From: Octopus vulgaris
Taxonomy: Eukaryota
Direction: 5' to 3'
Assembly (NCBI GenBank): GCA_951406725.2
Contig: OX597843.1
Span: 20,832,001-20,896,000, forward strand
Length of the DNA: 64,000 nt
Below are positions 14,781 to 53,030 of the stretch, piece after piece (the stretch's first letter is position 1; every line of letters starts with the position of its first letter). The notes under the pieces were generated by a model, which did not search any database, had not been told where the DNA came from, and saw nothing but the letters and a program-made list of their open reading frames with translations. The position numbers and the translations under genes were made by a program.

Positions 14781-15969
14781 ATATACATATATGTATATAT
14801 ATATAGGATATGAGAGGTAATGTTGTCAAGGAGACCCAAATGTGTCAGTTAAAGCTGAGTAAGTGCTATGGACATGCAAAATGAGGAGTCCAACGTAGGT
14901 CATATTTTTACATCTATATGTATAAAATTACAGAAGGAAATAAAAATGCAAGGCTGTGAAACATTTAAGAACATTTCTAAAGAGAAGAAGTTACAGCTGT
15001 TTCCGGGATATTTATGTATCTCTTTATCGGAGACGTTGCGAGAAGATTGTTAAGCTATAGGTATTCTAGAATAACTATTGCTTAACCATTTTCGCATACT
15101 GTCTTCGATGAAAGAATATATAAGATATACCTGGAGCAGCTGAAAGTCCTCTCTATAAATGTTCTGAAATCTTTCAAAGCCTTGGACTTTTATCTGATTC
15201 ATTTATATATATCTTCTCTATATATAAAACTGAAATGCGTTTTTACCGCTTGGATCGCTTTCAATGCCACTACGACCCGTCCGATTCGCTCCAAAATGTA
15301 CAGGGACATGTAGAATGAGGTGACGATGCTCGTGGGCTACCTTAGAAATCCCTATCTTAAAAGGTGTGGTTGCTAGGGGCCATCTTCGTCACTCACGCTA
15401 TTTCCTCCTTTCCCTCTCTTACTCCCCTTCATCCATAACGTTGACAATGTCCACTCCCGTTATTTAACGTATTGCCCTCAACTCCCTTTCATTTTCCCAT
15501 TATAAGATCGTCAGACGGGTTTCTTTGATGTATCTGTCGGCATTCATAGGGAGAATTATCATCGCTACAAACGCCACACAATCATGAGAACAAATATTAT
15601 GAATCAGATATTCATTGCGTTCATTTATATATGTGTGCGTGTGTGTGTGTGTTCGATATGTAAATATGTATATATAATGCATATATACAAAGTGTATATA
15701 TCTGTATTTATGTATATTACACTTTTTAATACTTTTTGATAGTTATATATATATTTTAAACAAATTATAAATATAATTTAATAATTTTTATTTTAAATTT
15801 AAATAATTTAAATTTTTAATTTTATATATTTTCTATATTATATTTTTCTTTTTATGTTTTTTTTTGTTTTGCCTATTAGTGGTTTTATCTCTAATTTAAT
15901 TTATACATATATATATATAATTTGTATATATAATGCGTGCACACCCACACACACACACACATATATATA

Positions 15970-16816
15970 CTAGCAGAATTACCCGGCGTTGCTCGGGGCT
16001 GAATTGCTTGAAAGTACTCTTAATGATTGCACTGAATTATGATGATTATTCAGGCAAATATTGATATAAGTTTAGGCTGGGAGATAAAGACTTAACGATC
16101 AAACGTGTGCCATTGCATTGTTTTGGGGGAGCCAAATTTCTGATGAGTATTATAGGGGCACCGACTTTAAGTTTGAGAATGTGTTGTGTTAGTCCGGGGT
16201 GCTCAAAGGAATTGAGTACCTCTATTGGATAGTTGATGACGTCCTCTGGGTCAGGAGTTGTATTGATAGACTGATATACATAGACTTCCCCAGGAATGAG
16301 TTTTAGCATTTCATCATTAATATGGTGAACAGTTTTATTCCTCGGGGCCAGTATAGCCTTTTGGCCAATCCAATCCATATTCTGATAATTAGCTTGTAGA
16401 TCTTGGAACACTGCATCTCTGAGATCAGAAGGCGTCTTAACAATGGTACAAATGGAATCGATGGCAATATTACCATTTTCATCCCCTGGTATTTTGCCTT
16501 CGCCAAGTGCAATGAGGGTGTGAGGAAATGCTGCTGATGTGATATTACGTCGCATATGAGCACGCATATTGGTGTGAAGTTTGAGAGTTACTTCCCTTTA
16601 TTAAAGAAAATATGCATTAAAATGGGAGAAAATGATGGTAAATTATTTGTAAAATCGTAGACTCATCGTAGACGTGCGCTAATACCCAGAAGGGCTCGAT
16701 ATGAATCACGACTATAAGATACTCGGTTTTGGTTAAACTGCATCGCAAAATGTGGGAGTAGTTAGGAATCTAAATCGGAGTAGACAGACACACAACCTTT
16801 CTTTTATATATAAAGA
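15970..16816 (-). mobile_element. Non-autonomous Helitron with intact termini carrying a PIF1 helicase fragment
   Basis: On the minus strand: 5' TC at 16816, 3' hairpin CCCGAGCAACGCCGGG then CTAG ending at 15970, inserted between A and T. ORF 16046-16567 has AILAPRN and LKLKVGAPIILIRNL..CNGTRL. Confidence 0.92.
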
Positions 16817-21237: not shown

Positions 21238-21718
21238 GATAAATAGATAGATAGTTAGATATAAATACAGTGTACATTTGAACACATAAGATGTACCCGT
21301 CATAGGATTTCCTGCACGCCAGAAGGAACAGCTAAAATCCAAACCGCAATTAGGGATAATCATCGAAGGGAATGAAAATTATAAAACACTTACTCTATCT
21401 CCTAGACAACGGATTCAGACATTTTTTTAGCAAATAAAATTATTTGCTAGGCGAAGTCCTCATCAGCAGGTACGCCTAGATTAAAACATATAAGTATGAG
21501 GCAATCCAACAACGCCTCTTATGTGATACCTCTTATGTGTTTAGATATGTTTAAATGTGTTTAAACACATAAGACGAATACGTCTTATGTGTTTAAATGT
21601 ACGCTACATTTATATAATTAATATATAGGCTATTGACAATTTTTTTTACACGTTAGGCGACTGGTAGTAAAAATTCTAAGCTTTTTATTACCCTGTTATT
21701 GTTAATTATTGATAGATA
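20845..21718 (+). repeat. Distal part of copy A (paralog of 57345-57418 joined to 62376-63030)
   Basis: TATTATGCGTGG...AAACTGAATACA matches 57345-57418 and is followed directly by TTTAATCCTTTTT..., which matches 62376 onward through CCCTGTTATTGTTAATTAT. Confidence 0.9.
21095..21260. repeat. (GATA)n microsatellite
   Basis: Direct reading. Confidence 0.95.
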
Positions 21719-23258
21719 GGGACGGCATAGTTGCTTGACAGCAACGCGAAACTCGCGGTGCCATTCGTGCTTTCTCGGCCTCTTTTTGATCCACGACTGC
21801 AGTTCGGTCATGGAGACGAGTTGCGGGAAAGCGTGCCTCACAAACGGCGACCACACCTGTTCACCGTCGTCTACGTAGAGCCTGAGATATCGTAATCTCA
21901 GAGCGTATCTGCGCATCATCAACCACGGCATGCCCAGTCCTTATTTTAACGGGTGTTGACAGCAAATGTATCGCCTGACCATCGGGACGCATCCTTTCCA
22001 CAAGAAACGAAAGAGAATGCGGGACAAGGTACGACGGTCAGGCGGTAGTAGATGACGTACGTGATGTACGAGTTCGCCACCTCCGCCCGACCTTTTAGGG
22101 ACAGTTTCCTCTCGGCCCATTGCCGGGCGACAGTGACCACCCTACTCAATATCTCGTTCCATTTCTTCTCCACTGGAGGTCCGCACCAAACCAGACCCTG
22201 AGAAACTCGAACGGACCGTCGGTCCAGCGTCCCACGACGGAGGCGCTGGTGGACTGCATGGGCTTGCTTCTCCAGGTGCCGAGTTGCAAGCCCACTGATT
22301 TTTCCCGGTTGATTTTCGCTCCTGTCACCGCTTCGTCGCCTTTCAGTGTCTCGCCGACATGCTCTATGTGCTCGTGGCTAGACACTATGACGTATGCAGA
22401 CACGCTCGTCACGAATCCCAATTCTCGTGGGATGACCCTCATAGTTGGCAGCTTCCGTAATAATGGCTCGAGAATCAATGCCTACGGAAGCGACGAGAGG
22501 GGGCATCCCTGACGGACATAACGTGCAATGTCGAAAGGTCTCTATAGAAGTCCATTTACGCGAATTACCGTACGGATGCCTGTGTACAAAGCGGCTATCC
22601 AGCTGCGGAAGACGGGAGCGAAACCAACCGCTCTGAGGACAGCCTCCAAGTATCGATGGTCTACCCTATGGAAAGCTTTCGCTTGATCCAAATTGATCTG
22701 CGCCCCACCCGTGCCAGATTCCTTAACTACCCTGTCTATGATGTAGCGCATCAGGTGGCGGTCGTCATGGATGCTCCGGCCCGGCACGGCGCACGTTTGC
22801 GCCTTGTCGACCAGTTTCTCAATGACAAGCGCCAACCTCTTCGTTAACACCTTGGCCAAGATTTTCAAGTCTGCATTAAGCAGAGTGATGGGCCTAAAGT
22901 TATCTATTACATTCCCCTTGTTTAGATCTTTCTTCAGCAGTGCTACGTCTCCTCGGATCACAAAACCAGGAATGCTCCCGTTTTTCTGCCAGTTGCAGTA
23001 CTCCGCTGTCAAGACGTCTCCAAACTAGTCATGTCCCTCGAGCATTCTGCCATCGCGTCCTGCACTTCCGCAGCTGTGATGGCACCTTCGTTGCGCCCTG
23101 CCACTCTTGTCGAGAGTCGTGGTACGCTGTGTAGGTTGGCACTGAAGTCCACCATACGTTCTTACCCGCCACTCGTCCCGAACAGTCGGGCAAAATGCTG
23201 TTGGAAGTCCACACACATTTTACTAGGCTCGAGCAATTCGCGCCACTGTTCATCTACT
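21719..23258 (-). mobile_element. L1/Tx1-clade LINE ORF2 (RT) fragment
   Basis: NFRPITLLNADLKILAKVL, QTCAVPGRSIHD, LDQAKAFHRVDH, RQGCPS(L), RKLSLKGRAEVAN; frameshifted. Confidence 0.9.
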
Positions 23259-27072: not shown

Positions 27073-30000
27073 CGGATAATAATAAGTTGCTGACCCGCCA
27101 CAGGCCGCCTGCTTCATTGGGTGCTTGGAGCTAAGAGTTTGACTTGAAAAACGGCCTGCAACCTCTGCACCAGACAAACAACTAAAAGACAAGTAACCAC
27201 CAATCCTGCGGTTAGCAAGCTTGAATGTCAGGACCATGTGCCCTGGCATATCTGATGATCTACTCAGGGTTGAAGACACAAGAAAGACAGCCATCATTGA
27301 CCGTGAACTAAAGAGGCTTAACATAGTCATTGCTGGGCTGCAGGAGCCAAGACTTCCCTCAAATGGCAAACTCGAAGAACAGGATTTCTCCTTCTTTTGG
27401 CAGGGAAGCGATCTAGAAGAACCTGGTCAGCATGGCGTTGGCTTTGCAGTGAGAAACTCATTACTCTCCTCAATAGAACCACCATCAGGAGACACTGAGC
27501 GTATCCTCTCACTGCGCCTCTCGACTTCTTCTGGTTCAGTACATCTACTGAGCATCTATGCTCCCACTCTCTATAGCCCAGAGGAGACCAAGGACCAGTT
27601 CTACGAAGATTTCAACTGTGTCATTAAAAATAGAGCAACACATGAAAACATCTACCTTCTAGGAGATTCGTGGCAAATTTGTGTTGGACACCCTGATATT
27701 GGCAACATGAATGACAATGGTCAGAGACTACATGAAATTTGCACATTCCATAACCTGTGCATCACCAACACATTCTTTGCCAGCAAGACATCCCACAAGG
27801 CATCTTGGAGACATCCAAGATCTCACCACAGGCATCAGATGGATCTCATCATTACACGAAGATCCTTTCTGAATTCTGTTCACCTGACCCGTAGTTACCA
27901 CACAGATCACTCACTAATTGGAAGCAGGGTGAGGATCCTGCCTAAAAAAGTCCATGACTCCAAGAACATGGGCCGACCACGCATTAACACTGCCAGAAGC
28001 TCGGATCCTACACAGCGAAAATGTTTTGCTGTTTCTATCAAGGTGCCCTCAGTAGCTGCCCAACCCCCTTTGCTGAAATTAGGTGGAATTATTTTAGAGA
28101 AGCTTTGTATACCTCATCAATAGATACTTTCAGCATGAGAGAAAGTCAAAACCCAGATTTTGTCCAGTGTTGGGCTCTCAGAGCTGGAACCAGTTATCAA
28201 AGCAAAGCGTGCAGCTCTGATGCAATACAAGAGTGATTCTTCTACAAAATCACTCGAAGAACTCAGAAAGGCAAAAAATATAACCCAACTGACAGCCAGA
28301 TGCTGTGCAAATAGGTATTGGCAGGAAATCTGTCAGAGTATCCAGTCAGCTGCTGAGAGTGGCCACACCCGTGGGATGTATGCCGGTTTAAAGAAGGACC
28401 CTCGGTCCATCCGCAACCAAGTCAGCCCCTCTGAAATCAACTACTGGATATCTCATCAAGGACCAAAGCAAGAAAATGGATAGATAGGTGGAGTACTACC
28501 AGGATCTCTATTCATGGGAGACCACGGTAGCTGAGGCTGCAATCGAGAGTGTCAAGATCTTGCCAGTCATGTGAGAACTTCACAGTCCACCATCTATAGC
28601 AGAGCTCACCAAGGCTATTGACTCCCTAGCAAGTAACAAGTCTCCGGGAAAAGACGGCATCCACTCAGAGATCATCAAAGCCGGCAAAAACACCATCCTG
28701 CTTCGGCACCATCATGAGCTTCTGTGTCAGTGCTGGGATGAGGGTACAGTTCCTCAAGATATGCGGGATGCTAACATCATTACGCTTTACAAAAACAAAG
28801 GTGACTGTGGTGATTGTAACAATTATCGTGGAATATCTCTTCTACGCACTGTTGGAAAGACCTTTGCTCACATTATCCTGCCCAGGGTACAACTGCTTGC
28901 TTCTCGAATTCATCCGAAATTGCTGTGTGGCTTTAGAAGGAGCAGATCAACTATTGACATGATATTCTCCATACGCCAACTTCAGGAGAAGTCCAGAGAG
29001 CAGAAAATGCCATTACATATCGCCTTCATTGGTAAGTAGAAAAGGCCTCTTCATCCTGCTCCAAAATATCGGATGTCCACCAAAGCTGCTGAGATTCATC
29101 AAATCTTTCCATGATGATATGCAAGGCACCATACAGCACAATGGTTCAACAACAGCCGCATTCCAAATAAAAACGGAGTAAAGCAAGGTTGTGTCCTTGT
29201 TCCTACATTATTTGGCATCTTCTTCTCGCTGCTGCTCTCACATGCCTTTCAGACATCAGATGATGGAGTGTTTCTGCAGAGTAGAAGTGACGGGAAACTG
29301 TTCAATCTCTCGCGCCTGCGTGGCAAGACCAAAATCAGAAGCGTCCTGCTCAAGGAGATGCTATTTGCTGATGATGCCGCTTTGGTATCACGCACAGAAG
29401 AAGCCCTAGAAAGGCTCATCAACTGTTTTGAGCAGGCATGTAACGACTTTGGATTAGCTATCAGCTTCAAGAAGACCAACATCATGTTTTGGGCTACACC
29501 GGACATCCGAAACATACATATTGGAGACCACAGATTACAGGAGGTGGAGACGTTTACCTATCTTGGCTCTACCGTCACCTACAACCTATCCCTTGATGTT
29601 GAGCTCAATATACGCATTGGCAAAGCAGCTGCTGTGATGGCCAAACTCTCGAAACGAGCATGGGTCAACATTAAGCTGACCAAGAACACAAAAATGAAGA
29701 TTTACCAGGCATGTGTACTTAGCACTCTACTGTATGGAAGTGAGACTTGCACGCTATTCACACGCCAAGACCGTCGCCTAAATAACTTTCACCTGCGCTG
29801 CCTCTGGAAAAGCCTTCGCATCAAATAGCAGAATCATGTCCCCAACAAAGATGTCCTCAAGCAAGCAGGAATACTAAGCATGTTTGGACTCCTCACACAA
29901 AGACTTATGAGATGGCTTGGACATGTTAGCCGTATGGGAGATGGCAGAATCCCCAAGGTCATATTCTACAGAGCGCTTACTAGGTGCACAAGGTCTGCTG

Positions 30001-30379
30001 GTAGACCGTTCTTACGATACAAGGATGTTTGTCAAAGGGACATGAAGGCCTGAAACATTAATATTAGCAACTGGGAAGTAGTTGCCAGCAAACGTGGAGA
30101 TTGGAGACGTTCCGTAAAAGAGGGAATACAAAGGAGTGACAGAGGAAAAGAGGAGAAATGGAAAGACAAGAAAAGACGTCAACAAGAAACTATGACATTA
30201 CAACCAGCCAGGCAAAGTCTTCGCTACATTTGCGGCACCTGCCAGAGTGAGTGTTTGTCCAGGATAGGACTACACAGCCATAGCAGGAAATGTATAGGAC
30301 ATGAAATGTAAAAAGCCGGACTAGATTATTTTATGCGCAACTCCATTGTCTCCCGAGACAAACAAGATGCCAACAACAA
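27073..30379 (+). mobile_element. Near full-length RTE-clade LINE (APE + RT), pseudogenised
   Basis: APE: NVRTM, LQEPR, GVGFAV, YAPT, ITNTFF, SWRHPRS, TDH. RT: NYRGISLL, CGFR..RSTIDMIF, GVKQGCVL, LFADD, YLGS. C-terminal C-x2-C..H motif and (CAA) tail. Confidence 0.95.
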
Positions 30380-30631
30380 TTAAAATTATCAATTTAATAA
30401 CTAAATAAATAAGTTAACATTTTTAATGTCCTAAAGTTGATGAACCAACTATTGTTCTCCTTCATTTTCTTATTTGCTATATATATATATATATATATAT
30501 ATATCATATTATATTAGAGACAAAACCACTATTAGGCAAATCAAACAATGAAAAACTTAAGCCAATACATAAGATTAATTTATATTATTTAAATATATAA
30601 CAAAATTATTAATAAAATATAATTAATTTCA

Positions 30632-30695
30632 CACTACGATCGTTTCATGCCTGCTAACTTCATCATATTTTTGAGTCGCAGTCATTCATCAGGTG
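30632..30695 (-). ncRNA. Type-I hammerhead ribozyme motif (inverted copy)
   Basis: Reverse complement of 31013-31076 with an intact core. Confidence 0.8.
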
Positions 30696-31012
30696 GTTTA
30701 AATATCTAAAATATTATCAATATTTTTAAGATATAAATAATATATATAATATAATATTTTTACTTATAATAAACTCTATTATTAAATATGATTATATCGA
30801 AATCGACTATATTGTTAAATATTAACTTTAATTTATATGGTAGAAAACCCATAATCTGGGTTTTCTACCTTATAAATTAAAGTTAATATTTAACAATATA
30901 GTCGATTTCGATATAATCATATTTCATAATAGAGTTTTTTATAAGTAAAAATATTATATTATATATATTATTTATATCTTAAAAATATTGATAATATTTT
31001 AGATATTTAAAC

Positions 31013-31076
31013 CACCTGATGAATGACTGCGACTCAAAAATTTGAAGAAGTTAGCAGGCATGAAACGATCGTAGTG
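31013..31076 (+). ncRNA. Type-I hammerhead ribozyme motif
   Basis: CAC-CUGAUGA-AUGaCUGC...GCAGgCAU-GAAA-CGAUCG-UA-GUG: canonical core, palindromic stem III, GUA triplet. Confidence 0.8.
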
Positions 31077-31259
31077 TGAAATTAATTATATTTTTTTAAT
31101 AATTTTGTTATATATTTAAATAATAAGTTTTTCATTGTTTGATTTGCCTAATATTGGTTTTGTCTCTAACTTAATATAATATAATATTTTACTATAAAAT
31201 TAGATTCAATCCTAAATCTTGTTTTTCCCTGTAAGTTTGGATTTATTCCCTAATATTTA

Positions 31260-31308
<49 letters not shown>

Positions 31309-31580
31309 ATATATATAAAGTTATATCTTGAGTGACAACAACGCTCAAGATATACAACGGACTGGAAATAGAAGTGCTCTAATGAGCTGTATACCCTTTT
31401 TTTATCTGAGGGGAGGCAATGCGAGCAACAACTACAGGAACATCGCAAAATCCATAGAAACACCAAATACATACAAATCTTCATATACTCATTTATATCT
31501 ATAAAGACCGACATTTAAAAATTTAAAAATTTAGTAATGTATAAATATATCGTATAAAAATATAAATTTTGCATATAACA

Positions 31581-33822
31581 CCTTGAATCTATGGAGTGGC
31601 AACGGCTTGAAATAGGTATTGCAGCCGGATGCACGATATCAGTTATCTTATTCGTGCTAGTCATGGAAATGCTACTCAGATCTACAAACTGTGAGAAAGC
31701 TGTTACTAAGACACCATTAAGGGCTTTTATGGACGACATAACTATATTATCAGAGTGTAGAGAAGAAGCAGAGGGAACGGTAGAGCGGTTGGACGAGCTG
31801 ATTGGATGGGCAAGGATGTAATTCAAAGCCAAAAACTCTCGAAGCGTGGCTTTCTTGAAAGGAAGGCAAGAAGTGAAATTTAGGATAGGAAGTGAAGACA
31901 TACCAACGGTTAAAGAACAACCAGTAAAGAGTCTCGGCAGATGGTATAGAGATTTATTAAATGATAAGAAGCAAGGGCAAGAAACGCACGAGTTAGTAGA
32001 ATAAGGATTAAATGCAATTGACAGAACAACGTTGCCGGGAAAATTCAAATGTTGGATACTGCAATTTGGGCTGTACCCAAGAATAATGAGGCCATTGCAA
32101 ATGTACGAAATAGCCTCAATAGAGCAGAAAGGATGCAACAAAGATGCAGTGTGTTTTTCAGAAAATGGCTTGGTCTGCCGAAACCACTGAATACAACTAC
32201 ATATGGAAAAGCCGTGCTGCAATTAAAAATAACATCAATCGCCGAAGTATAAAGGGCAGGAAAGGCAAGGACAGTAATGATGCTAAGGTATTCAAAAGAT
32301 CAGAGCATCCGGGAAAACCCTCCAAAGGTACGATAAGGGAGGAAATGGAAGGCGGAAGAGGCAGTAAACAGGGTTATTGGAAAACTAAAGCACGCAGATA
32401 TAGTCGGAGCGACGCAAGAATCTACAACCAGCCTAGGGTCGCAAAATTTCAGGCCATTTTGCAAGAGCAGTATAAAAGAGATGAAAGAGGCATTGGTATA
32501 CGAAGTGAGAAAGGAGGAAGAAGAAAGGCGAAATTTACATTTGGTGCGATGCAGTTGAAATGGACAATGCCTGAGATGGCAGGAATATGTGATGAACCGC
32601 AGAATATCATGGAAGGAACTTTAGGCTTGGGAACAAGCAAGAACATCCATCCTGATCAAGTCTACCTCCGACGTTCTACCCTCACCGGCGAACTTAGTCC
32701 GGTGGAACATAAATAAAATTGATGACTGTAGATGCGGAGAGAAAGCGACGGTTAGACATGTTCTGTCAAGTTGCAGACTAGCACTTGAAAGAGATACTTG
32801 GCAGCATAATCAAGTCCTCAGCGTCATAAGCGCAGCACTCAAGGATAAGATCGAGAGGTACAATAGGGGAAAGTACCCAAAAGTAGAAAAGCGCAGGAAA
32901 GTATACTTCCACAGGGAGGGAAAAGGCCTACAAGTAAAGTATACAAGATAGACGAAAGATGGAAGGGATACTGGGAGGTGGCCACGGACTTGGAAAGACA
33001 AGTAGTATTTCCACTAATAAAAGCAACAAAAAGACCGGACTTAGTTCTATGGAACAGAGACCGGGGAATGGGAATTTTACTAGAACTGACAGTACCTTGG
33101 GAAGAGAACATCGGCAATGAAACTAAAGGAGAAGAGGTACGAAAAGCTAATCGAAGAATGCAGAGAACAGGGATGGAATGTCGAATATTATCACCTGGCA
33201 ATGGGGGATAGAGGCTTCATTGAAAAGAAAATGACAACGCTTTTCAAAAGAAGATTTGTTTTTTGTAGCCCCGAGCTGCGTAAACTAATAAGGAGAGTAC
33301 AGGAGGCGGTCGAAAAAGCCAGCTTCTATATATGGCTGAAGCGGGAAGACCGAAAATGGCTTCAAAATCATAAACACGCCGACGGGAAATAACATCAATA
33401 GGTGAGACGAGCTGACTGAATCAGCTTCGCTGACTGACAGGTGATGGTCGTTTAGAAAAAGCGCGGGCTAAAACTACGCGCCTTCACTAGTCAGTTAAGG
33501 TGAGACAGTGTCATGTGACAAGTTGCTGGGTCTATGTGGCAGGTATTTAAAGAGAGAAATTTGACAAGACAGTCAGTCACCGGCTGACACTCGCTGACGA
33601 TACATCGAAGAGGCCAGGGAAAAGAAGAACGAAGACATGTACCCAGCACCAGAGCTGAAGACACCTCCGAAAGGGGGGGGGGGGGGGTCCCGCCACGTCA
33701 AAACTGTAGAGGAGTAGGTGCCGAAACCGGACGTGGTTCCTCCTGATGATGTCTTGAGTTAACTGGATCCTATAAAGGAGCTGTTGGGGTAGCAGACCAC
33801 GAAACACGGTTGTAATTCCTAA
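31581..33822 (+). mobile_element. HERO-like (R2-group, RLE) non-LTR retrotransposon, 5'-truncated, decayed
   Basis: GIAAGCTISVILF, AFMDD, VKSLGRWY, LPGKFKCW, RKWLGLP, CRCG..TVRHVLSSC, WQHNQVL, RPDLVLW..LELTVPWEE, K.KRY. Possible degenerate TSD TATAAATTT(T)G..ATAACA at 31561 and 33823. Confidence 0.85.
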
Positions 33823-33987
33823 GTATAAATTTGTTACAATAACAGAAATAAATAGAATAATAATAAATAAAAATAAAGCATACAATGGCAAATTAAAAGA
33901 CGAATTAAAATTCTAGCGAAATGTACATAGAAGATAATAATTATACAATTTACAAAAATATAAGTTTACAAAGATACAGAGAAGTCC

Positions 33988-34068
33988 CTCTACGGGCCGT
34001 TTCGGAGACGCGCCAATTAATATTAGTCAATTCATATACTAAAAATTGGCACTCCCCTCATCAGGTTA
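33988..34068 (-). ncRNA. Hammerhead motif in the 3' region of the minus-strand PLE
   Basis: Minus strand CUGAUGA-GGGGA..GCCAAUU...AAUUGGC..UCUCC-GAAA-CGGCCCG-UA. Stem I is poor. Confidence 0.55.
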
Positions 34069-35039
34069 TCCTATACATACAACACATAGTAAACGTGAAC
34101 AAATACACAATTACATACCGGCCATATTCAGAAACGAGACATTACGTACTCCCAGAAATTTTTCTCCGATCCTGAATGCTATTTTATATGCATATAATTC
34201 GATCCAGCAGCCATAGTAAATGATATGCACACAGCGCCATCTGGACCATTTCACTTCTGCACTTATTTTATTTTAGTTTTCTTCAATCTTATAAGTTCTC
34301 ACATATATGCAAAGCCACATATTCGGGTTCAAGTCCTTGACACATTTTATACTAATAGCTATTTTTTTCTTTTAATAATTACATTACTTTACTTTTATTT
34401 CATTTACAACTTACTAAATTTAATTCAATTGTTATTGCTTAGCTCTAACTTTTATTGTTATTTCTATATCTAAATTTCTTATAGAACGTCGAGTGGATCT
34501 TATGCGTACACGCCTGTATTGCATCAGTGAACTTATTTAACACTGCGTTGTTGTAATAGTATATGCTTCCCTTATGCATAAACCGCATCTAGTGGACCCA
34601 ATTCTATAAGGGGAGGCATGCGCAAGGATAGCCCATGATATTTTAAATTCAACATTCCTTTCCTTAAGGTCATTAACATGTAATGCCAATGTTGTAGAGT
34701 TCTTATATTTAGGATTGTTGAAAGAGCTCAAGTGGGATCGATACCCCTGCCTAAAGTCTACTGTGCTTCCAATATATATTTTCTCTGGCCTCCTTGAGCC
34801 TCAACACTACATTTATAAACTAAATTTTCCTGGCGACAATTTCCGCTAATCGGACATACTGATGGGCCCCTACAATTACATTTCTTCAACCTGCTACGTG
34901 GTCTCGTATTACTGATCACTCCGAAACCATGCCCCCTCCCAGAACTAGGATCCACCATATCATTTACACCATCGTTTCTACTATTTTCCGGTATATGTAT
35001 TGTTATATGTATATGTATTGTTATTCTTACTATTACCAT

Positions 35040-35254
35040 TTTTTTTTTTTTTTGTACTTGTTTCAGTCATTTGACTGCGGCCATGCCGGAGCACCGCCTT
35101 TTGAGTACAGCAGGGATCACCACCTCCTGCCGGAGCCTCGTGGAGCTTTTAGGTGTTTTCGCTCAATAAACACACACAACGCCCGGTCTGGGAATCGAAA
35201 CCGCGATCCTCCGACCGCAAGTCCGCTGCCCTAACCACTAGGCCATTGCGCCTC
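35040..35254 (-). mobile_element. tRNA-SINE inserted in the PLE
   Basis: Minus strand GGCGCAATGGCCTAGTGGTTAGGGCAGCG (A-box), GGTTTCGATTCC (B-box), and a tail matching the 1343 SINE plus poly-A. Confidence 0.85.
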
Positions 35255-37344
35255 CACATCATTCTTATTTTTATTTTTATTTTTACTAATATTTGTATTA
35301 CCATTTTCAGTACAATTAACACTATTATTACCACCCTGATAATCATTATAATCAATAATATCATCACCAACATCATTATTATGATTATCTATACAATTTG
35401 CATTATTGGTCATTCCAATACGCCCTTCATAATCGATTTCAGAAGACGTACTATTAATATTACTACTATCTTCTATGTCCCTTATGAATTTTCCATTAAA
35501 GCTTCTGTCATCATTTCTATCATTATAGCGCCTTATTTTACTTCTGTTCAACGAAGCAACAATAGATCCGACATTGGGAGTGTCTGAGTAGGCCAAATTG
35601 ATTGTTGACTTGTTACATATTGAATAGTACTTATGGTGTTTTGGGAAATTTTCCTTCAATAACTTTAAAAATAGCTTTGGTAAACCTTTCACCCTTAATG
35701 AAAAGGGAGAGGCAAACCAAGTAACTTGACGAATCCTAGACTTGGTATTAATAATGGGATTACAATATGTTGCTTGACTTGATGTAAGGCCATTGCTGTA
35801 TCTATTAGTAATATTTATATCTTTATTTTTACTACTATTAGTATTATTCTTATTCCTATTTTCACCTTCACTAGACCTAGGCCCAACTTTAAAACTCAAT
35901 TCACATTTATGACTGCTATAATTTGCAACCCCTTCCCTCCCGTTGCTGTTATCATCCATGGTATTTTCATCATTACAATTCTCATAATTAACCTTATTAA
36001 CGTGGTTACCATTTACAAAACCAACCACATCACATTTATTTCCCTTATTTCCAAATCTCATTTTATCAGCATAAATATTGGTCATTATCAGCTTGTTGCG
36101 AGTTCCTTGGGGATCATGAGGGGAGCCTCTGCTATCCGAAATCCGTTTCATATCGTCGCTGACCATGCTGGCCATTTTAATTTTTAATGTTGTATTGTGT
36201 ATGTATTCAATATTATTTGTGAACCCACTCAATTTTAAGGCATTGTTGTATATTGGGGCGTGTTGATTAAAGATGTTTTTCTTCGCCGATAGGTTTGAGA
36301 TTCTGATAGAAATTGCAGTTATAATGCTATTGATGGTTGATTTGGGATGATTTGAGGAAACATTGATACATCGGAAAGTTTGGTTTGGTTTTCGGAAAGG
36401 GTAGTGTAAGCTAGTATTCAGATAGAGAGTGATGTCGAAGAAATCTGCCACTTTTAGAATTATTCTCAAAATCGATGCTCAAATTATAAAAGTCCTTGAG
36501 AGTTTCTCTAAGGTCCTTCTTCATTCTTTCAATCTGAGGCTTAGATATGGAAAAAACCGCTTAAACTTGTCTAACAAAAATAGACCAACAATATCCGTCA
36601 CTTGTGCCGAATCCGATGATCCCATAGTGATGTCGAATAAAATAAAAGAATCCGATTTAGACCAGTGGTGCTTTCCATAATTTATCAGTGTCATTCTTGG
36701 TGCTTGAATAATATCAATATCTAGATTCGATTTTTGAACAAAGTTCCGGGCGAAAATGATTGCTTTATTCAGTAAGATGGGAGAGATCAAGGAGTTGTAA
36801 TTCGAAATATCAAATTGTACAAATGAAGATGAGTCATCACATTTAATTGTGTGAACCCTATATAAAACGTCATTGGTAGATTCCCATAAGGGCAACATCG
36901 TCCTTTCTCTTATCACTGAAATAATTCTATCCAATATGGATTTGCTGATTCTACCCAAGCCAGATTTAGTTGGGCAAATTAATCATATTGACAGTTTGGC
37001 AAGAAAATCTTTTTTATGGTCCTCTAGGGCGCAGTGCGCGGATCGTAAGGTTGCGTGCAGTCAAGGATTCCCAATTCAGAAATTAATTCGTCGTGTCTAT
37101 TATTAATGTCGGCAAGAGCCGATTTCTTGGCGATTTTGTATTTAGCTTGCAGCTCTTTGGATATCAATTTATCCTAAGTTTCATAAGGCACTGAATAAAT
37201 ATTCCCTTTTTTATCAGAAAGAATGTGTAGATTAGGATTTAAATGTTGGGATTTATAGATTTAAATGAGTATATGAAGATTTGTATGATTTTGTGACGCT
37301 CCTGTGGTTGTTGCTCGCATTGCCTCGCCTCGGATTAAAAAGTC

Positions 37345-37724: not shown

Positions 37725-38790
37725 GGAATGGTCATTTTGAACGTTTAGCCAATGAAAAACACACGCACTATGTATTTGGTGTTGCTTCCTTCAGGGTTAT
37801 TTATTTTTTTACATTAATCTTAATCTTATTTCAGCCAGAGTTCTTTCGTCACACTCCTGTGACCGCTTCAGCGGTCCTATGTTTTCTTCTTTCTTATTTG
37901 TGTCTCTCCCTAATAACCGTCCATTTTGTATTCCTATTGTATGTCTTCATTTGCGCATACTTATATCTCTATGTGCGTGTTTGTTTATTTAGTGTGTGTG
38001 TGGGGGGATGCATGTAATATTTGTATCTTCTGTTTATATACGTTGATGTAATTTCTTTTTGTTGTTGTTTTTGTTTATTCTTATTTTGTTCATGTGTTCA
38101 CATCTACTTATTATTATCATTACATACGCTTGTATGTAGGTATGTGTGTATAACAAAAATACTAGTAATAATAATAATAAATCGAAAAAAAAATAAAATA
38201 GTTATTTATTTCTCTTTGTTTATTTATCTGTGTATTTATTATGTTTTCGGGATCCTCTACCGTCATATATTGTGGTGTGTACTAGTGTTCCATTCTAGTT
38301 TTCTATTCAGGCTAGGTTTATTTTCTATTATGTGTGTAGCTTCTGTAATTTGTCTGATTGTTGCCTCTGTTCTATGTGTGGACAATATTTTAATTTCTAT
38401 GTTGTTGATGGAACCCCCGTGTTCCTGTTGGTACAGAATCGATGAGCTTTTACCTTCCTTGAGTTGTCTCCAATGACCATTTACCCGCTCTCCTATGCTT
38501 CTTGCTGTTTCCCCTACGTATGTCGTTGTCTTATTACTGCATCGTCCCTCTACACATCTTATACTATAGACACAATTTCTGGCTTTACAGGAGTGTGACA
38601 AAAGAACTCTGGCCGAAATAAGATTACGATTAATGTAAAAAATAAATAACAATGAAGCAAAGTAACACCAAATATATAGTGCGTGTGTTTTTATTGGCTG
38701 AACTGGCAAAATGACCATTCCGAAATATAACAACATTTGTTTCAACACACGACTTCACATAAAAAATCTTGCACAACAAAGATATAAACG
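37725..38790 (-). mobile_element. 5'-truncated PLE: GIY-YIG end, pLTR and inverted partial pLTR
   Basis: NCVYSIRC..C...YVGETARSIGERVNGH...IRQITEATHI...PSLN. 37727-37860 is inverted at 38587-38722. HHR relic at 37835-37874 (-). (TA)n on both sides. Confidence 0.85.
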
Positions 38791-38959: not shown

Positions 38960-39905
38960 GTATCTATGCATATATGAGGAGGCAAAACTATATAAAAATT
39001 TGTTGTTCAGAATGCACCTAAATTTGGATTTTTTAAAAATAACCTTATTTGAATTGTTTTTAAATAACCTTATTTACATACATACCAAACTAGTTGCAAC
39101 AATACTTTTTTTAATAGTAAAAATTTAAAATATTGAACAAGAAAAACATGTTTCAATGTTTACAAGTTTCAGTGATATGAAATATGATTTAAATATTCAT
39201 AACATTCAATACTATAAAAGATGTGGAACATCTTGTTTGAATGCATAAAATTCAAAATATCGATAAAAAATGTGTATCATCAGAGTTTCGGCCATACAGG
39301 GTAAAGAAGGAGAAAAACAAGGGAGCAATTGAGATAGTGGAAAAAGGGAAATCTTTGAGCACAGTCCCTGTGAATCATTTTCCGTCGTGTGCAAGGACTT
39401 TTGCTTGTATCGGCGTTTTTCGGAATTGGATGTATTTACAATTTTTTCCGTGAACCGATCTAATATTTGATTCATTAAGTTACAGGTGACGTCTAATTTT
39501 TCTCGTGGGCAAGGTTGTTGTTCTGCCTGATGGGCTTCCCTGTGGGCATAAGCCATTCCAGTTGGTTGATTCTCTTAAAGCGTCACTTTGTTGTGTTTGC
39601 TCAAGTTCGGTTCTGATCAGAAGTAAAATTTCAATGATTTATGAGACATCGGCAACTGGTGATTATATGGTGTTATTGTATGGCGATTTGGATCTGCTAT
39701 TTCGAAACCCGCGTTGAAGACTGGTACTAAAGATTTTTGAATTTTGTCTGTTGTATCTCGGGTTTTTCTTGTGGAAAAATTGTTTCTTTTTCCTTTTTCT
39801 GTTTAGTGTTTAAACAGAGGTGAATAAGCGAGAATGAATTAAACGATATTCTTTATTCCATAACACTACCATTGAATATTATTCAGGTGTTGTAATTAAT
39901 ATATA

Positions 39906-40192
39906 GCGCATGTCTTAGTGGTTAGAGCGTGGAGCTTACAATCGTGAGGTTGTGAGTTCGAATCCTGGACCGGGCTGCGTGGTGTATTCTTGAGCAAGAC
40001 AGGTGTAGAAATGAATTGCGACGTCACAGGTTCCAAGTCGTATCGGCAGTTGCCTTTCCCTTAGATACAGAGGGGAGGCCGATACGCATGGGCGACAGCT
40101 GGTCTTCCATAAACAACCTTGCCCGGACTTGTGCCTGGGAGGGTAACTTTCTAGGTGCCAACCCATGGTCAGTCATGACCGACGGGGGTCTC
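39906..40192 (+). mobile_element. tRNA-derived SINE
   Basis: A-box-like head, B-box GAGTTCGAATCC, TTCTTGAGCAAGAC core. Confidence 0.8.
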
Positions 40193-40775
40193 AGTTCAAT
40201 CCTTACCATGTATTGTAGGTGTAAAATATGCTTTTATTTGAGTATTTCAATAAGTTCTACGTTAGATCATAGAATCATTTCACAGACACATGTTCCACCT
40301 TTGATGAATGGCAGTGATCACACAAGATATTAACCATATCATCTCATCAATGAACTACGGGAGTGATGTATAGACACAATTGCAGGGATATGGAATAAAG
40401 AATGTCGTTGAAACCATTCGCTTATTCCTCATCAGCTATGTATGTATGTATGTATGTATGTCTGTATGAATGTATGTATGTATGTACGTATGTACGTATG
40501 TATGTACGTATGTATGTACGTATATACCATTATTTCCTCTTTTACGTGTTTCAGTAAGTTGACAATAGGAGAATCACCTTGAAGTACGTAACTCGAACGA
40601 ATCGAGACCACTAACTATTCTTTTAAACTCTGGTACTTACCCTGTCGGCCGCTTATGCGAAATCGCTGACTGACGTGGAATTAAACGCATTAACGTAGGT
40701 TGTGAAGAAGTAGTGAGTACAAACATAGAGACTAAGTCACACACATACACTCGCACACATATGTATATTATATAA

Positions 40776-40826
<51 letters not shown>

Positions 40827-41293
40827 CGAGTTAGGACTCTACTCCATGGAGCGAAAACCGGAGATGTATGTAGTGATATGTGTGGAAGTTACTAGGGAAG
40901 CTGTTATCAAACTTTGGAATTCAGAATTATACCAGACGTCGAAATGGACGTCACTGCACTGTTCCAAAAGTCCCGGCTCTCTCATTTAATATTAGGAGAA
41001 TGTACTGCAATAGTTTGGAGTTCAAGTGCTCACAGATATTTAACACCTTGCCAACACATCTGAGGAGTGGGTGTAGATGTTTCAAGATACAACTTGACCT
41101 CTTTCTATCCAAGTGAACCAATATCAGGGCAGGAAACTCAAAAGACTGCAGCGGTAGCGAACTCCGGCCAATCCCATAAACTCGGCCAGTGGAAAAGTGT
41201 TTACACTCATGGGGCCCCAGCATCGACACAGACTCAGGGTTAAAACATAAAAGAATAAAAGAATATATATATATATATATATATATATGAATG

Positions 41294-41994
41294 AAGGTTT
41301 GAAAATGCAATTTTAAAAGATGTTTATTTACTTGACCGGTTTCACTTTCTTAGAAAAAGATTGTCAAAAGTAACATGTAAAAGCTTTGTTGTGTTAGGTA
41401 CTGATTGTCTACAATACATATACACATTCCTTGATAATCATATGAACATTTAGTTAGTATATAAATGTACAATGAGGGAGATATGTTTAGTTTGAACTGA
41501 CCTGATTCACCATACTATCGTAAAAGCTTTTACGATAATATGGTGAATCAGGTCAGTTCAAACTAAACATATCTCCCTCATTGTACATTTATATACTACC
41601 AAAATGTAACCTTTTTGAACTTATAATTTTCTGTGTGTATATATACAGATACAATACAAATTTTCCTCTGAACTTTTTAATAATTCTTTCTGTAAACTGT
41701 TTTTAACATTTTCTTATTATTATCAAAGAATGTATATATGCATTGTAATCTTTTGTACCCAATATTTTAATGAACTTGTCAAATTTCTTTTATATATTCC
41801 CAAGATTTTCCCTTGTAAACTGTGTTTAACTTATTCTTATTATTATCAAAGAATGTATATATGTATTGTAATATTTTGTGACAACCAGTACCTAACACAA
41901 CAAAGCTTTTACATGTTGCTTTTGACAATTCTTTCTAAATAAGTGAAACCGGTCAAGCAAATAAACATTTTTTAACATTGCATTTTCAAACCTT
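41294..41994. repeat. Foldback with HHR-like motifs (copy B)
   Basis: Centre TAAAAG|CTTTTA at 41526/41527; paralog of 2140-2828. Confidence 0.9.
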
Positions 41995-43095
41995 CTTTGA
42001 TATATAATTCCACTCGTGCGGTACCTTACAACTCGAAACATTACGTACGACAGTGGTTCTTACGTAATGTTTCGAGTGTATGGGCGCACGAATAAATCAC
42101 AGCTTAATCCAGAGCATGTTCATCATATTTTTCCGACATCCTCGGTATTGTGCATTGGGAGATTATTCAGGGAGGACGTTTGGGGAAAATAACCGGATCT
42201 GGATTCGTGAAATGTTGAATTTTTCACGACAAAAATGCACCTATCACCTCACTCGTAAGTTTCTTGCCAAAAACAACATGCAATTGCTTCCGCATCTGCT
42301 CTATTCGCCAGATTTACCACCTGCTGACTTGCATCCGTTCCTCAAGATGAAAGATCAGCTCAGAGGTCGAGATCAAGAGCAAACTTAACATCATTGTCGA
42401 CGGTGCCATTTTTACCATGGGCTCCTAGGGAGCGTTTTGTTCGAAAAGCTTGCTGCGCATTTGTTTGGAGATTTTAAATTCCTGATTTTCCTGAAGAGAA
42501 AGCTGCAGAATGGGCTCCTTATTCAATCCGAATTTGGGAATTTGCAGCCTTTGAAACATGTGTAGAAAATAATAAAAAGGAATTTTGTAGAATCTTCGTT
42601 CCGCTCCATTTCATCACTTCACTAAATATACAAAACTTCAATTATCCGCGCTAAAGCACGGGGGCGAAACCCCGTGGTCGTAACCTCAACCGTGTCTTTT
42701 GTGGTGTGATTTCTGCTACACAGGTATCGGTTAAATTTTGAATAATCCGTAACAAGATAATTCATTTATCCATTTCATTAAACATTATATATATATGTAT
42801 AAACGCACACACTCACTTCCAGGCCACACATATATTCCCACTTTCTTACACACAGGCAAACACAAATTGCAAGACAATATGAATTGTAGAAGAATGAGGG
42901 TAAATAAAGAAGATAAGAGAGACATTTAGTTTGTGGAAATGACATTGGATGACATATCGTGATCTTATTATGAAGAAGATGACTAACATAAGAGAAAGTC
43001 CCCCGCCCCTAAACCCTGGACCATCACCTAATCACTCTTATCCGTCTTGTTGCCCAAACCGCAACATCGACATCATCACCATCATCATCATCATC

Positions 43096-43151
<56 letters not shown>

Positions 43152-44013
43152 AAGAAGAAGAAGAAGAAGAAGAAGAAGAAGAAGATGATGATGATGATGA
43201 CGATGATGATGATGATTATGAGGATAACGATGATTAGCAACAACAACAGCAACAACATTAAAACAACAATAAGAGAAGTGACAGAAAATGTAGGAGCTGA
43301 AGAAAAGAATGATGTAAAAAATAAGGAGGAAACGAAGGAGTCTGTCATGAAGACAACTTAAATATAATATTTCTGATCTTATAATAATTCTGTTTGTCGT
43401 TATGTTAATTACTCCGTCGGTAACGCTTTCTCGTGAGTAGAGAGGAAGAGGGAGAACGAAAAAGAGCAAAAGAGAAATGTCCATGACCTGAGGTAGAAGG
43501 GACGTGACTGTAATGCTTTCACGTGATTAGTTGAATGGAATGAGAGACCGAGAGAAAGAAAAAGGAATGAGAAAACGAAAGTAAGTGGAAGAGTGGGGCA
43601 GAAAGAGAGGAAGAGGGAGAGGGAGAAAAGGGGAGAGAAAAAAGACCGGGGGAGAAAAAGAGGGAGAGGACATGTGGTAGGAGGAACGTAATATTTATTA
43701 CGTGATGAAAAAGTTAGTTGAAGGTAGTGATATTGAGGAGGGTTACGAATATAATTTCAGCAGAACAGTGATGTTCTGATGGTGAGATTAAAATAAGGCA
43801 GATAGGTAGATAAAGAGATAGGGAGATAAACTGAGAAAACGAGAGAAAGGGGGAGTGAGAGATGGTAGTAGTGGTGGTAGTGGTTGTGGTGGAAGTGGTG
43901 ATGATGAGTGCATAATGCAAAGTAACTTATGAATTGAACTAAGTATTTTTTATCCCCTATCACTTAACACATGCTCATAAATATTCACACTTATTTACAG
44001 TGTCATATGTACG

Positions 44014-44101
<88 letters not shown>

Positions 44102-45085
44102 CAATTAAGAAATGTATACACTATAATTAAAATATATATATTCCAATTAAAATAAAGGTGGACACACAGTAAATTCCATCTCTACAAGATCCCGGTTGAT
44201 GTTGTTACTGCTTCTCATACACTCTGCCGTTGGTTGTGCTTCCGCTATGGGGGAGATAAAAATTCGCAATTTACGGTTATTTGATCCTTTTTCCAAAGCT
44301 GTGCTTATGAAATAAGCAAATTACAAAACTTGACTGAAGAATGGAAAGTTAAAGAAGATTAGAAGCTACTCGCGAGAGGGTTAGGCACTACAGGCAGCGA
44401 ATAAGAGAAGAACAGCGGTAAGAAATCAGAGAAAGGGACAAATGGTACCAACAGATGAGACGATCTGCAATAGATGAAGAGCAAGGTAAGGCACAATTGT
44501 AGTGAGAGAGAATGGGAGACCAAGGTAGAAGACAGGATGAGGAAGAACAAGCACAGTACAAGGAACAACAAAGATTGATATTTCTGCGGAGAATGGAAAA
44601 CATGAATGATATGCAGTGTGCGCAGTATCAGGACCAACAGAAAAGCGTAATGTAACAGAGAAGGGAGAATATGGATGATTTGGAAAGGGCTGCTTGCCTC
44701 CAAGGTCAAACAGAGAGACATCAAGATGGAGTTGCAAGTATGAATGCTGAACAGGCGTTACGTTTGCGAGATGAACAGGTGCAACGAAAGCGTGAAGGAA
44801 GACATGGACTACCACTGAACAGACACAATAATCCTAAACGAACCTATCGTATTGGTGATATGTACTTTTATTGCGAGTATTGTGGAGCACTGAACTTTAA
44901 ATATGAAAACTTCATGTTCAGTCACAATAATAAAGTGAATTTTCCTCCACTGCAACTAAAACCTCAGACATTGAAGCGTTTGTCTGAGAAAATTACATCA
45001 GCAATTACAACTGCATACCTTCCTTTACGTCATTTGGTGTGAAACTCTGTGTGCCACAGGGAAGAGGTCTACATTGTTTCTGTAT

Positions 45086-48000
45086 TGTTGTGGAAGGATT
45101 TCGACCACCTTCCAATTGACTAAACGCGAACTGACACATTCCTATTAAATAGACAACTGTCGAGTCTTCAGCAATTAATTGGTAAATAGTTCACCGTGAG
45201 CCATTGACAGAGAGCGTTTGGTAATCGATTCGCGTCGTGTAAACACTTTCTTTCCCCCTGATTCCTTAAATCATCCGTTCCAAACCAGAGTATAAAAGTG
45301 GCGAAGAGTTCTTCGAAGTTTGCGTTCGACGTTTAAATTTGTTTGGGATGGGTATGAAACCAAAGAAAAATTGTTTAAGATAGAAGGCTTATTGGCGGCT
45401 GTGGTGCAGTTGCAACAGCAACAATAGTAACAACAACAAGAGCAACTACAACAGCAACAACAACAAAACCAAGAGTTGCTGGAATCAATGCTAAAGAAGT
45501 CTAAAAATATTTCAGGCGTGAACTTGCCAGACAGCGTAGCAATCTCTATTGAAGTATTCAGTTATAATTCAGAAGATGGGATTACCTTCTCTGCATATTT
45601 TCGAAGATACGAAGAAATTTTCAAAGAAGAATTTATAAATTGATCTGAGAGGAAAAAGAGTAAGACTACTTTGTAAGACAGGTATCCCTTTGCCAAATAC
45701 AAAAAAATATTGTAATTATATTCTGCCCATGAAGTCGGGTGAGATTTGTTTCAATAAAAACTATTAACATTTTATCAAATGATTTAGAACTGGACGAAAA
45801 TTAACTCTACAGACAGAAGCAGAAGAATGCCAGAAAAGACGACGCAGAAAAAAATGAAGAAAAAGATTGCTCTCATATTCCAGTGTCTCCACCGTAACGG
45901 ATAAGAAATAAGACAAAAAATGTCAAGAAGGAGTCCATGTTGTGGTCTACATTTTAAAAGTAACTGCCCGGCTAAAATCCAAAAACGAAATTTTGTCAAA
46001 ACGTTTCAGTGAAAGAAATTCTCTGCTAAATACTTGCGGACAGTTTTTATATTTTGTCCCAAAACATGAAGATTTCGTCACCTGTGCCGAGGATGTTAAC
46101 GGAATGTGTAAAAAATTCAAATTATATGAATTAAGATGCATATTTTTCAAATGCATATTTTTGGTTTAAGGCCTAACTGCAAGCAAAGATGGAAATATAT
46201 GTTCACGGATGTCAACAAAATTAGAACTGGACAAAAAGTAACTCTACAGACAGAAGCAGAAGAATGTCAGGAAAGACGACGCAGAAAAAATGAAGAAAGC
46301 GACGCCCAAAAGGAAATTGAAGAAAAAGATTGCTCTCATATTCCAGTGTCTCCACCGTAACGGATAAGAAATAAGAGAAACAAATGTGAATATCGAATCC
46401 ATGTTGTGGGTGCGGTGGTCAACATTTTAAAAGTAATTGCCCGTTTAAAAATATAAAAGGAGTCAAATGTGGCAAGAGAGATCATAAAATATCACACTGT
46501 AGAACAAACCTGGAAAACAGCTCAACAGAAAGAAAACACGAAAACAGGTTATCGGTGACCAAAAACCGAACAGCCTCAAAGGAAATTTGTGGACGTAAAG
46601 TTGCAACTAGTTAAGGGCAGTGATATCTCGATAATTAACACAGATACATAGAAAAAAAACAGAAGACTCAGATTAAGACATTTCGAAAATTGTAGGTGGT
46701 GTTTCAGGAAAATAATTACATTTTAATGGCGTAATGATGAACCACGTTCCATTTCGTGGAAAAAACCTTATAAACCAAAAATTTTGTGTTGAATAACATC
46801 CCAAATATATTCGGAAAACTGAATAAAATTGTTTACCTTATGGGAACTCCCCATAAATCTTTTCAGTAAAAATGTGAATGGTTTTCTTGCCAATACAGAT
46901 GAATCGGCGGACGATTTGTAAAAATAATTTAAAAAGATTTTTCCTGAAGTTCTCTCTGATAAATTAGATCTGAGCATCACAACGAAAACGAAGTTCCAAG
47001 TAAAAGTAAATGTCAAACCGGTATTTAAATATAAACGAACTGTAACTTTTGCATCGTTGGAACAGATAAGCTTTTGCAGCGTTAGAAACAAATAACCAAA
47101 ATCAGAGTGTATGCTGATTTTTTCCACTCGTTTAAATGAGTGTCTTAAAACGTTCCACTATCAGCTACCTACCCTGGGGGATATATTTGCAAAATTAGAC
47201 GGTGGCAAGGTATTTTCTTAATTGGATCTCCCTGACGCGTACCTACATATTAACGTAGACGATGAATGCTATAAATACCTAAAGATTAACGCACATATGT
47301 ATATATATTTCTTTACTACCCACAAGGATCTAAACACAGAGGGGAAAAACAAGGACAGATAAACGGATTAAGTCGATTACATCGACCCCAGTGCGTAACT
47401 GGTACTTAATTTATCGACCCCGAAAGGATGAAAGGCAAAGTCGACCTCGGCGGAATTTGAACTCTGAACGTAATGACAGATGAAATACGGCTAGGCATTT
47501 CGCCCGGCGCGCTAACGTTTCTGCCAGCTGGCCGCTTATGTATGTACAACAGGTTACTGTATGCCTTTATGTCACACCGGCGATTTTTCAACATCTTATG
47601 GATGCAGTGTTAGCGGATAGTAAATTTGCATTTCCATATCTGGATGATATACTCATTAAAAGCGAATCACAAGATCAACATATAGAGCAAGTAATATATA
47701 TGTTCGAAAAAATTAGGGATTACAGTGAAAAAGAAAGCGTGAATTTTCTTCTTAACGAAAATAAAATTGGACAAACAATTGAAAGAAATAGATGAGGACC
47801 AGATCCGTTGAGGGCAGACGCAATTAAATACATGTCCCCTCCAACAAATATAACGACCTTACATGATTGCTTTGGAGACAAGCAAATTATTAACAAATAT
47901 GCATAGGGTAAGTGTTACAGTAGATTATGTATTTAAAAAATGTCAATTGAAATTGCTCTGAAATTGTCAAAGGGAATTCGACGAAATTTTAAAATATTAA

Positions 48001-52980: not shown

Positions 52981-53029
<49 letters not shown>

Positions 53030-53030
<1 letters not shown>

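Follow-up and report, generated by a model that had tools for sequence, protein, structure and literature searches.

A near-palindromic sequence with a hammerhead ribozyme motif on each strand might be a ribozyme element in its own right, a regulatory RNA locus or the residue of a larger element, and this is the question raised by a locus in a 64,000-nt stretch of Octopus vulgaris DNA (referred to as the window, whose positions are used throughout). Our analysis indicates that this foldback almost certainly consists of two 3' ends (pLTRs) of a Penelope-like element (PLE) lying head to head in a (TA)n microsatellite. Its inverted arms, at 30583-30851 and 30857-31125, are 269 nt each, 98% complementary and 5 nt apart, which bears out the near-perfect inverted repeat with a 5-nt loop described in an earlier note on this DNA, and no stop-to-stop ORF of at least 90 aa overlaps the foldback, in keeping with the lack of coding capacity reported there. 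Arm pairing reaches approximately 30516 and 31167 with seven mismatches and a 25-nt gap in the right arm, near 31123, that we read as a deletion because family copies possess those 25 nt. The feature had been placed at 30514..31169 and described as bounded by (TA)n; this holds on the left, where the repeat occupies 30478..30504, but on the right the element continues past 31169 for about 95 nt, its 84-nt tail included, up to the (TA)n at 31265, and the whole insertion (approximately 30503-31264) is larger than first described.

Both strands carry a hammerhead core (CUGAUGA, stem II, GAAA, the palindromic ACGAUCGU and a GUA cut site), at 31013-31076 (+) in the right arm and 30632-30695 (-) in the left, with predicted cleavage after 31073 and 30635, respectively, confirming the intact motif noted earlier at these positions. 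In the right arm, stem I (31013-15/31074-76) encloses the core (31016-22), stem II (31023-61), GAAA (31062-65) and the palindromic stem III (31065-72), so the conserved core and three helices of a type-I hammerhead are present. A loose hammerhead descriptor found four matches in the 64-kb window, both arms among them, against a mean of 0.055 in 200 shuffles. The description of these ribozymes as canonical suits their core but not the remainder: the Rfam hammerhead models proposed as a check gave no match at the gathering score or at E<=10, where only hairpin-driven miRNA and sRNA matches appeared, stem I has 3 bp, and the active fold, at a predicted -6.5 kcal/mol, lies 5.6 above the lowest-energy monomer fold (-12.1). 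The 8-nt palindrome of stem III is predicted to pair between two molecules (-12 kcal/mol, as a 13-mer duplex), and the two ribozymes of the foldback cannot dimerise in cis since one transcript carries just one of them in sense. A through-transcript is predicted to form a duplex of about 330 bp at approximately -440 kcal/mol with 63 of the ribozyme's 65 nucleotides base-paired to the far arm. Among 15 ribozyme variants from the family the core is invariant in 15 of 15, a result partly built in by their having been gathered by core pattern, and stem II measures anywhere between about 16 and 39 nt; in 6 of the 15, both sides of stem III carry AU in place of GC with the palindrome preserved, and overall covariation is weak, 32 of 500 shuffles being equally high. 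Even with weak covariation and core-pattern sampling, these sequences suggest that the ribozyme has been under selection in the parent lineage. The window also holds hammerhead-like motifs that belong to other families, at 33743-33811 (+) and 33991-34064 (-), which are neighbours on opposite strands, at 5189-5222 (-) and 42491-42564 (+), and at 61958-61987 (+), where a broken inverted copy lies at about 61900-61940.

Used as a genome query, one arm returned 1725 first-look candidates, 40 of them scored; copies have a common 3' end and variable 5' truncation. Upstream walking of copies led to a unit of about 5 kb organized as pLTR, ORF, long 3' UTR and pLTR (L034), in which the ORF of about 830 codons is broken by a frameshift and stops. 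In four of 13 further long loci, ribozyme-bearing ends occur as a direct pair or singly ahead of the ORF, direct pLTRs from partial tandems are seen at L034, L090, L091, L097 and L100, and ribozyme-to-ribozyme units measure 4967-5553 nt. Full-length copies are present elsewhere in the genome, and the 14 long loci that we inspected showed no intact ORF. The earlier note had offered a pLTR-only PLE insertion as one of two readings, and this one stands, the other copies being pLTRs of ORF-bearing PLEs. A donor-like GTAAGT motif is found inside the tail, upstream of the ORF start, at L034:4736 and at window position 31231.

The parent protein combines, in a single ORF, a reverse transcriptase (RT) with a C-terminal GIY-YIG endonuclease, which is the architecture of EN+ PLEs, and the family has the optional one-end tail, direct pLTRs and inverted 5'-truncated copies of that group. 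ESM Atlas neighbours of this protein carry RVT_1, HTH_animal and GIY-YIG (clusters at 0.95-0.98) and a protein search returned two homologs, and neither Pfam on the parent RT or endonuclease nor a PDB sequence search yielded a significant match; P0001 is a 597-aa open frame. Features published for the Hydra clade (Penelope-13_HM, Hydra-1_Obim; PMC8557442, in its accessible portions) are present, namely DKT in place of DKG (QSDKTRNLY), the linker CxCx5C (CTCRDKSKC), CxxC and CxH around a conserved E and N (CYLC..E..N..CRH), a C-terminal GIY-YIG-like region, a (TA)n target and a pLTR hammerhead with the layout ctgatgaN-tg..ca-tgaa-ac..gt, which is that of the Hydra-clade ribozymes in File S2 of the same source. 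At the N-terminal RWK position the parent protein reads RIKWKAY and the aligned homolog P0002 reads MRWRAF, and no CCHH motif was noticed by eye in the endonuclease. Unlike published Hydra-clade elements, which are mostly under 3 kb, a trait described as typical rather than strict, the unit here is about 5 kb, with an asparagine-rich linker, a long 3' UTR, a pLTR intron of 700-850 nt and a longer stem II, and the ribozyme sequence differs from that of Hydra-1_Obim. By its motifs, and pending a tree, the parent element would be classed as a Hydra-like PLE. The asparagine-rich insert lies between the RT thumb and the endonuclease (L034:6280-6600, L089 and P0002) and resembles those reported for Adineta vaga PLEs (PMC3846280). 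A sister subfamily (L061, L066, L068, L071, L073, L074, L078 and L080), about 90% alike in the ORF, has a short stem II ribozyme and an identical intron acceptor position; 5'-end mapping of ORF-bearing copies is confounded by subfamily divergence.

The target could be read from a segmental duplication in which the locus sits. Of five paralogs that have both flanks in common with it, four contain an uninterrupted (TA)n and one has lost the repeat; the empty sites read TTATTTGC(TA)nAAGTTATATC, and comparison with them assigns 30478..30504 and 31265..31317 to the left and right parts of the target microsatellite, inside which target-site duplications are unreadable. A sixth paralog, found separately (L035, G000:C30:20462070-20462092), retains the left arm at 99.7% identity and lacks the equivalent of window positions 30858-34751, a loss of 3.9 kb that begins at the hairpin tip and has a short duplicated junction; the foldback may be a site prone to breakage. 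The surroundings consist of LINE, PLE and Helitron fragments, and the 125 frames scanned around the locus gave no host-gene Pfam match; a sigma-70 promoter scan was at chance level, the model being bacterial and irrelevant for an animal genome. On either side of the target (TA)n lie degraded RT elements of the LINE type, at 27197-30340 (+), 31579-33390 (+) and 21656-23024 (-), and Helitron/Pif1 fragments lie at 16049-16597 and 49866-50108. Another Hydra-like PLE ORF, also decayed, occupies 34540-36982 (-); it has an N-rich linker and is 45% identical to the parent protein over 82 aa, and a GIY-YIG fragment of another PLE lies at 38266-38754 (-; Pfam E 6.5e-4). The window also contains a direct segmental duplication (approximately 1-15000 and 39500-54800, 93-97% identity) within a wider contig region that is multiply duplicated.

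Upstream of the ribozyme the family occurs in two forms that differ by a GT-AG segment, an intron whose terminal TTTTAG lies 10 nt ahead of stem I; the 3-bp stem is thus the same before and after splicing. Intron length is 694-855 nt in 13 of 17 donor-bearing loci and 966 nt in one, the other three being unmeasurable. Exact patterns found 344 spliced junctions genome-wide versus 96 unspliced acceptors, copies being scored via junction motifs, and all three exon-1 variants were recovered both spliced and unspliced. Spliced arms are as near to unspliced arms as to one another; their spread over all three subfamilies and the 24 splice-state changes in a 119-arm tree, against a mean of 37.7 after shuffling, indicate that splicing has recurred. 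Moreover, 56 of 58 spliced arms end at most 31 nt above the donor, most commonly at -24 (7 arms), -29 (6) and -26 (5), on TCATT and TTAGT motifs that we take to resemble initiators, and a search that required the context 49-64 nt above the donor gave 0 matches for the spliced junction and 16 for the unspliced donor. Because spliced copies end near one position, we infer that the transcript starts 24-29 nt above the intron donor. Among four scorable 5' pLTRs ahead of an ORF, three are unspliced (L052, L055 and L073) and one, in L034, is spliced; the link between position and splicing is therefore not absolute. Short pieces of family sequence are covered by contigs from four runs, three of them presumed RNA and the fourth of unknown kind, and no contig among those listed spans the junction of the window copy. 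One presumed-RNA contig skips exactly the 700-nt GT..AG intron, a pattern that spliced genomic copies could yield as well. Two presumed-RNA contigs (runs X1 and X2) connect unrelated sequence with the family exactly at the intron acceptor or close to it, which hints weakly that host exons are spliced into copies elsewhere.

Read against the family, the window copy resolves into two unequal pLTR copies, both of which retain the intron. The left arm (30503..30857, -) is tail-less, its 3' end being the first of the family's two 3' end sites, and it contains the 3' part of the intron at 30706..30857 (-; acceptor AG at 30707-30706), its 5' end lying about 152 nt within the intron. The right arm (30857..31264, +) ends at the second site, carries the corresponding intron part at 30857..31002 (+; acceptor TTTTAG ending at 31002) and alone has the PLE tail, the approximately 84 nt between the two end sites (31181..31264, +). 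The head-to-head junction, at 30852..30857, comprises the 5-nt loop TAATC, contributed by the left arm, and a 1-nt overlap at 30857, and occurs only once genome-wide. With its fold point about 150 nt inside the pLTR intron, the copy is unspliced and without the inferred start site.

A pattern for divergent ribozyme pairs matched 78 genomic loci, and inverted partners were present at 29 of 60 pattern-picked sites. Fold points vary, the arms of 31 pairs lying between 1 and 1908 nt apart; this is largely the outcome, ordinary ORF-linked pLTRs with variable foldback points, that the earlier note had said would make the locus a one-off insertion product. Family 3' ends fall at two sites, approximately +203 and +285-295 from the acceptor, with (TA)n nearly always next, and 74 of 142 arms are tail-less and 51 tailed. 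In every informative case among 50 two-ribozyme pairs exactly one arm has the tail (44/44, made up of 26/26 from a set of 31 pairs and 18/18 from a set of 19), and pairs with a ribozyme-less inverted partner show one tail in 24 of 25, the exception being L040, a partial pair at a rearranged locus in which neither arm is tailed. These loci were chosen by similarity or exact pattern and are non-random, 9 of the 19 second-set pairs having been picked for common junctions. Splice state likewise agrees between the arms in 39 of 39 informative pairs, 27 spliced and 12 unspliced (15 and 10 in the set of 31, 12 and 2 in the set of 19), with no mixed pair; arms were too short in the pairs that lack a splice score, and the 1.5-kb flanks taken around the 60 pattern-picked sites are long enough for mixed pairs to show up.

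The joins between arms are less regular. Among 20 junctions, ten have an overlap of 1-8 nt, nine an insert and one is blunt. The tail-less arm reaches further 5' in 12 of 20 short pairs (tailed 7, equal 1) and in 15 of 24 partial pairs (tailed 9), some by more than 800 nt, and it is also the longer arm of the window copy; later hairpin-tip deletions, of which one is seen in a paralog of the window locus, could obscure which arm was longer. Identical junctions occur with opposite tail polarity (L205 versus L087; L210, L085 and L109 versus L082, L211 and L212), and recurring junctions were found across subfamilies 91-96% alike. L101, L206 and L207 have the same junction and the same polarity and are 98-99% alike, so limited re-copying of some spliced foldbacks is possible. 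At L214 (G000:C5:17337300-17339600), three head-to-tail units of inverted tail plus spliced pLTR are separated by (TA)n, probably a tandem duplication that is retrozyme-like in layout.

The two strict rules suggest that elements of this kind probably make two copies of a single RNA, each from its own start point. In L1 twin priming, a single RNA is primed from both target ends and microhomology joins the resulting cDNAs; there, adjacent segments become inverted, whereas primers set about 85 nt apart, as proposed here, copy the same segment and yield an inverted duplication. On this model, both cut target ends would prime reverse transcription on the same sense RNA at start sites approximately 85 nt apart, the two cDNAs would run toward the RNA 5' end, and their 3' ends would join where they meet, by short microhomology or small inserts, each completing the second strand of the other. 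Cap-proximal introns are preferentially spliced, which would explain why long copies retain theirs: in a transcript beginning 24-29 nt above the donor, the first intron would usually be removed and the read-through 3' copy would not, so that priming in the 5' pLTR would give short spliced stubs and priming in unspliced RNA would give long or intron-bearing copies such as that in the window. Insertion statistics are what this mechanism rests on. We regard the whole account of the window copy, a 5'-truncated PLE insertion made by two primings on one unspliced sense RNA, as well supported and probably correct; that both target ends primed on one RNA, an inferred step, is favoured more cautiously, and for the general proposition that PLE insertions arise by two primings on one sense RNA, with intron retention reflecting which pLTR primed, we lean only slightly toward acceptance. 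In vitro, a PLE protein has been reported to cut and extend both target strands, with two internal start sites that define the tail and with ribozyme cleavage unnecessary for insertion (PMC11167929, as far as its available text extends).

Other routes to the same geometry have to be weighed against this one. A tailed cDNA could fold back near its 3' end and copy itself, the endonuclease then trimming the second arm at site 1; this accounts for one tail and matched splice state equally well, and EN-mediated resolution is the origin that Craig et al. give for the tail (PMC8557442). Under such a snap-back, however, a tail-less arm should never extend further 5' than the tailed one, and it is the longer of the two in the window copy, in 12 of the 20 short pairs and in 15 of the 24 partial ones. 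One junction moreover occurs with either tail polarity, and the idea survives only via frequent later tip deletions, so that we consider it unlikely. Arms templated by two separate RNAs, one for each subunit of a protein dimer, would agree with their behaviour as independent cDNAs, with the dimer predicted for the anole PLE protein (PMC11167929) and with the finding that no more than 32 of 62 arms had their partner as nearest neighbour, a test blurred by indels and young copies. Two RNAs would nevertheless give no reason for start sites that always differ, and mixed spliced/unspliced pairs number 0 of 39 informative ones although both forms are common; this reading seems to us improbable. Self-priming on an antisense template is the published proposal for this very geometry, giving a head-to-head junction and intron retention (PMC3846280), and the window copy does keep its intron. 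A precisely removed GT-AG intron in both arms of 27 foldbacks and 344 spliced junctions in three subfamilies would instead need a spliced sense RNA; the sequences thus contradict the antisense proposal for the spliced class, and we give it very little credence overall.

Nor does the locus behave as a unit with a life of its own. The earlier note's other reading, a self-contained non-autonomous ribozyme element spreading as a foldback, might draw on the abundance of short foldbacks (78 loci) and on the few that have a common junction and polarity at 98-99% identity; yet the window junction is unique, which leaves the idea unsupported for this copy, fold points vary with gaps of 1 to 1908 nt, common junctions recur across subfamilies 91-96% alike with opposite polarity, and the window copy is without the inferred start site, so that this reading is highly improbable. 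We find hardly any room for a regulatory RNA, whether a masked-ribozyme switch or an ADAR/Dicer substrate. Masking as such is predicted, in that the duplex of about 330 bp in a through-transcript would bury the ribozyme, and follows from insertion geometry; a switch does not, no alternative fold being able to compete with -440 kcal/mol. Against any such role, the insertion is missing at four paralogous sites and half-deleted in another, and its setting is one of LINE, PLE and Helitron fragments with 125 frames free of host-gene Pfam matches. Three further classes (DNA transposon, retrozyme and viral hairpin) were dropped once the parent PLE and the spliced copies had been found: a non-LTR retrozyme consists of head-to-tail tandem units with a ribozyme in each (bioRxiv 10.64898/2026.07.22.740005, in the part available) and the arms here are inverted, and a MITE or foldback DNA transposon, marked by fixed terminal inverted repeats, uniform copies and an intermediate of DNA alone, is contradicted by asymmetric ends (the tail), variable centres and the many precisely spliced copies.

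Copy 5' ends show no pile-up at the predicted cut site (2 of 27 lie within 6 nt), (TA)n joined directly to that site has one match genome-wide, and both cDNAs of the window copy ran across it. With an uncut template, a copy without a promoter and a through-transcript that would bury the ribozyme, the ribozyme is likely a passenger here, though retained by the parent family. The window copy is likely dead, and the locus itself is ordinary debris.

The insertion type is already known, and the accessible portions of the literature give several counterparts. EN+ PLE insertions with an inverted 5'-truncated pLTR and a one-sided tail have been described (PMC8557442; Pen2a_Av in PMC3846280), Penelope-13_HM has an inverted 5' copy with a ribozyme on both strands (PMC8557442), and dual opposite-strand ribozymes 100-700 bp apart were assigned to truncated PLEs by Cervera and de la Pena (2014; PMC4209133). 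Like those EN+ insertions, the window copy has a head-to-head inverted copy, a tail at one end, a microsatellite target and heavy 5' truncation; unlike them, it consists of pLTR alone in either arm, and its tail of about 84 nt exceeds their 30-40. PLE hammerheads in PMC4209133 have a palindromic helix III and low in vitro cleavage, and position 10.1-11.1 is G-C there but A-U or unpaired here. The D. virilis intron ends at helix I (PMC4209133) and the present one 10 nt before stem I; Penelope of D. virilis likewise has a short first exon and an intron in the pLTR upstream of the ORF (PMC2377424), with a first exon of 46 nt as opposed to an inferred 24-29 nt here and an intron of 75 as opposed to 700-850 nt, and in the octopus family spliced genomic copies outnumber unspliced ones, a difference from what is described for Penelope. 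PAc (PMC11167929) resembles the family in that two RT start sites set the tail and both target strands are cut and extended, but that a single insertion uses both sites as a pair is our own proposal; no treatment of inverted insertions or splicing was found in the available portion of that source.

The locus draws its interest from the family-level rules, the one-tail rule, which the EN+ descriptions available do not count and which is here counted over 50 pairs and tied to splice state, and the matching of splice state between arms. Our literature search, outside which several older PLE papers fall, found no report of spliced genomic PLE stubs, of PLE twin priming or of either rule. The family bears on two questions left open in PMC8557442, how PLEs form tandem and inverted structures and why they keep introns, and the one-tail and matched-splicing rules yield clear-cut predictions for the in vitro system already in use (PMC11167929). 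If the proposed mechanism is true, hundreds of stubs in the octopus genome would read out both rules and would map the start site and intron of the family without RNA data.
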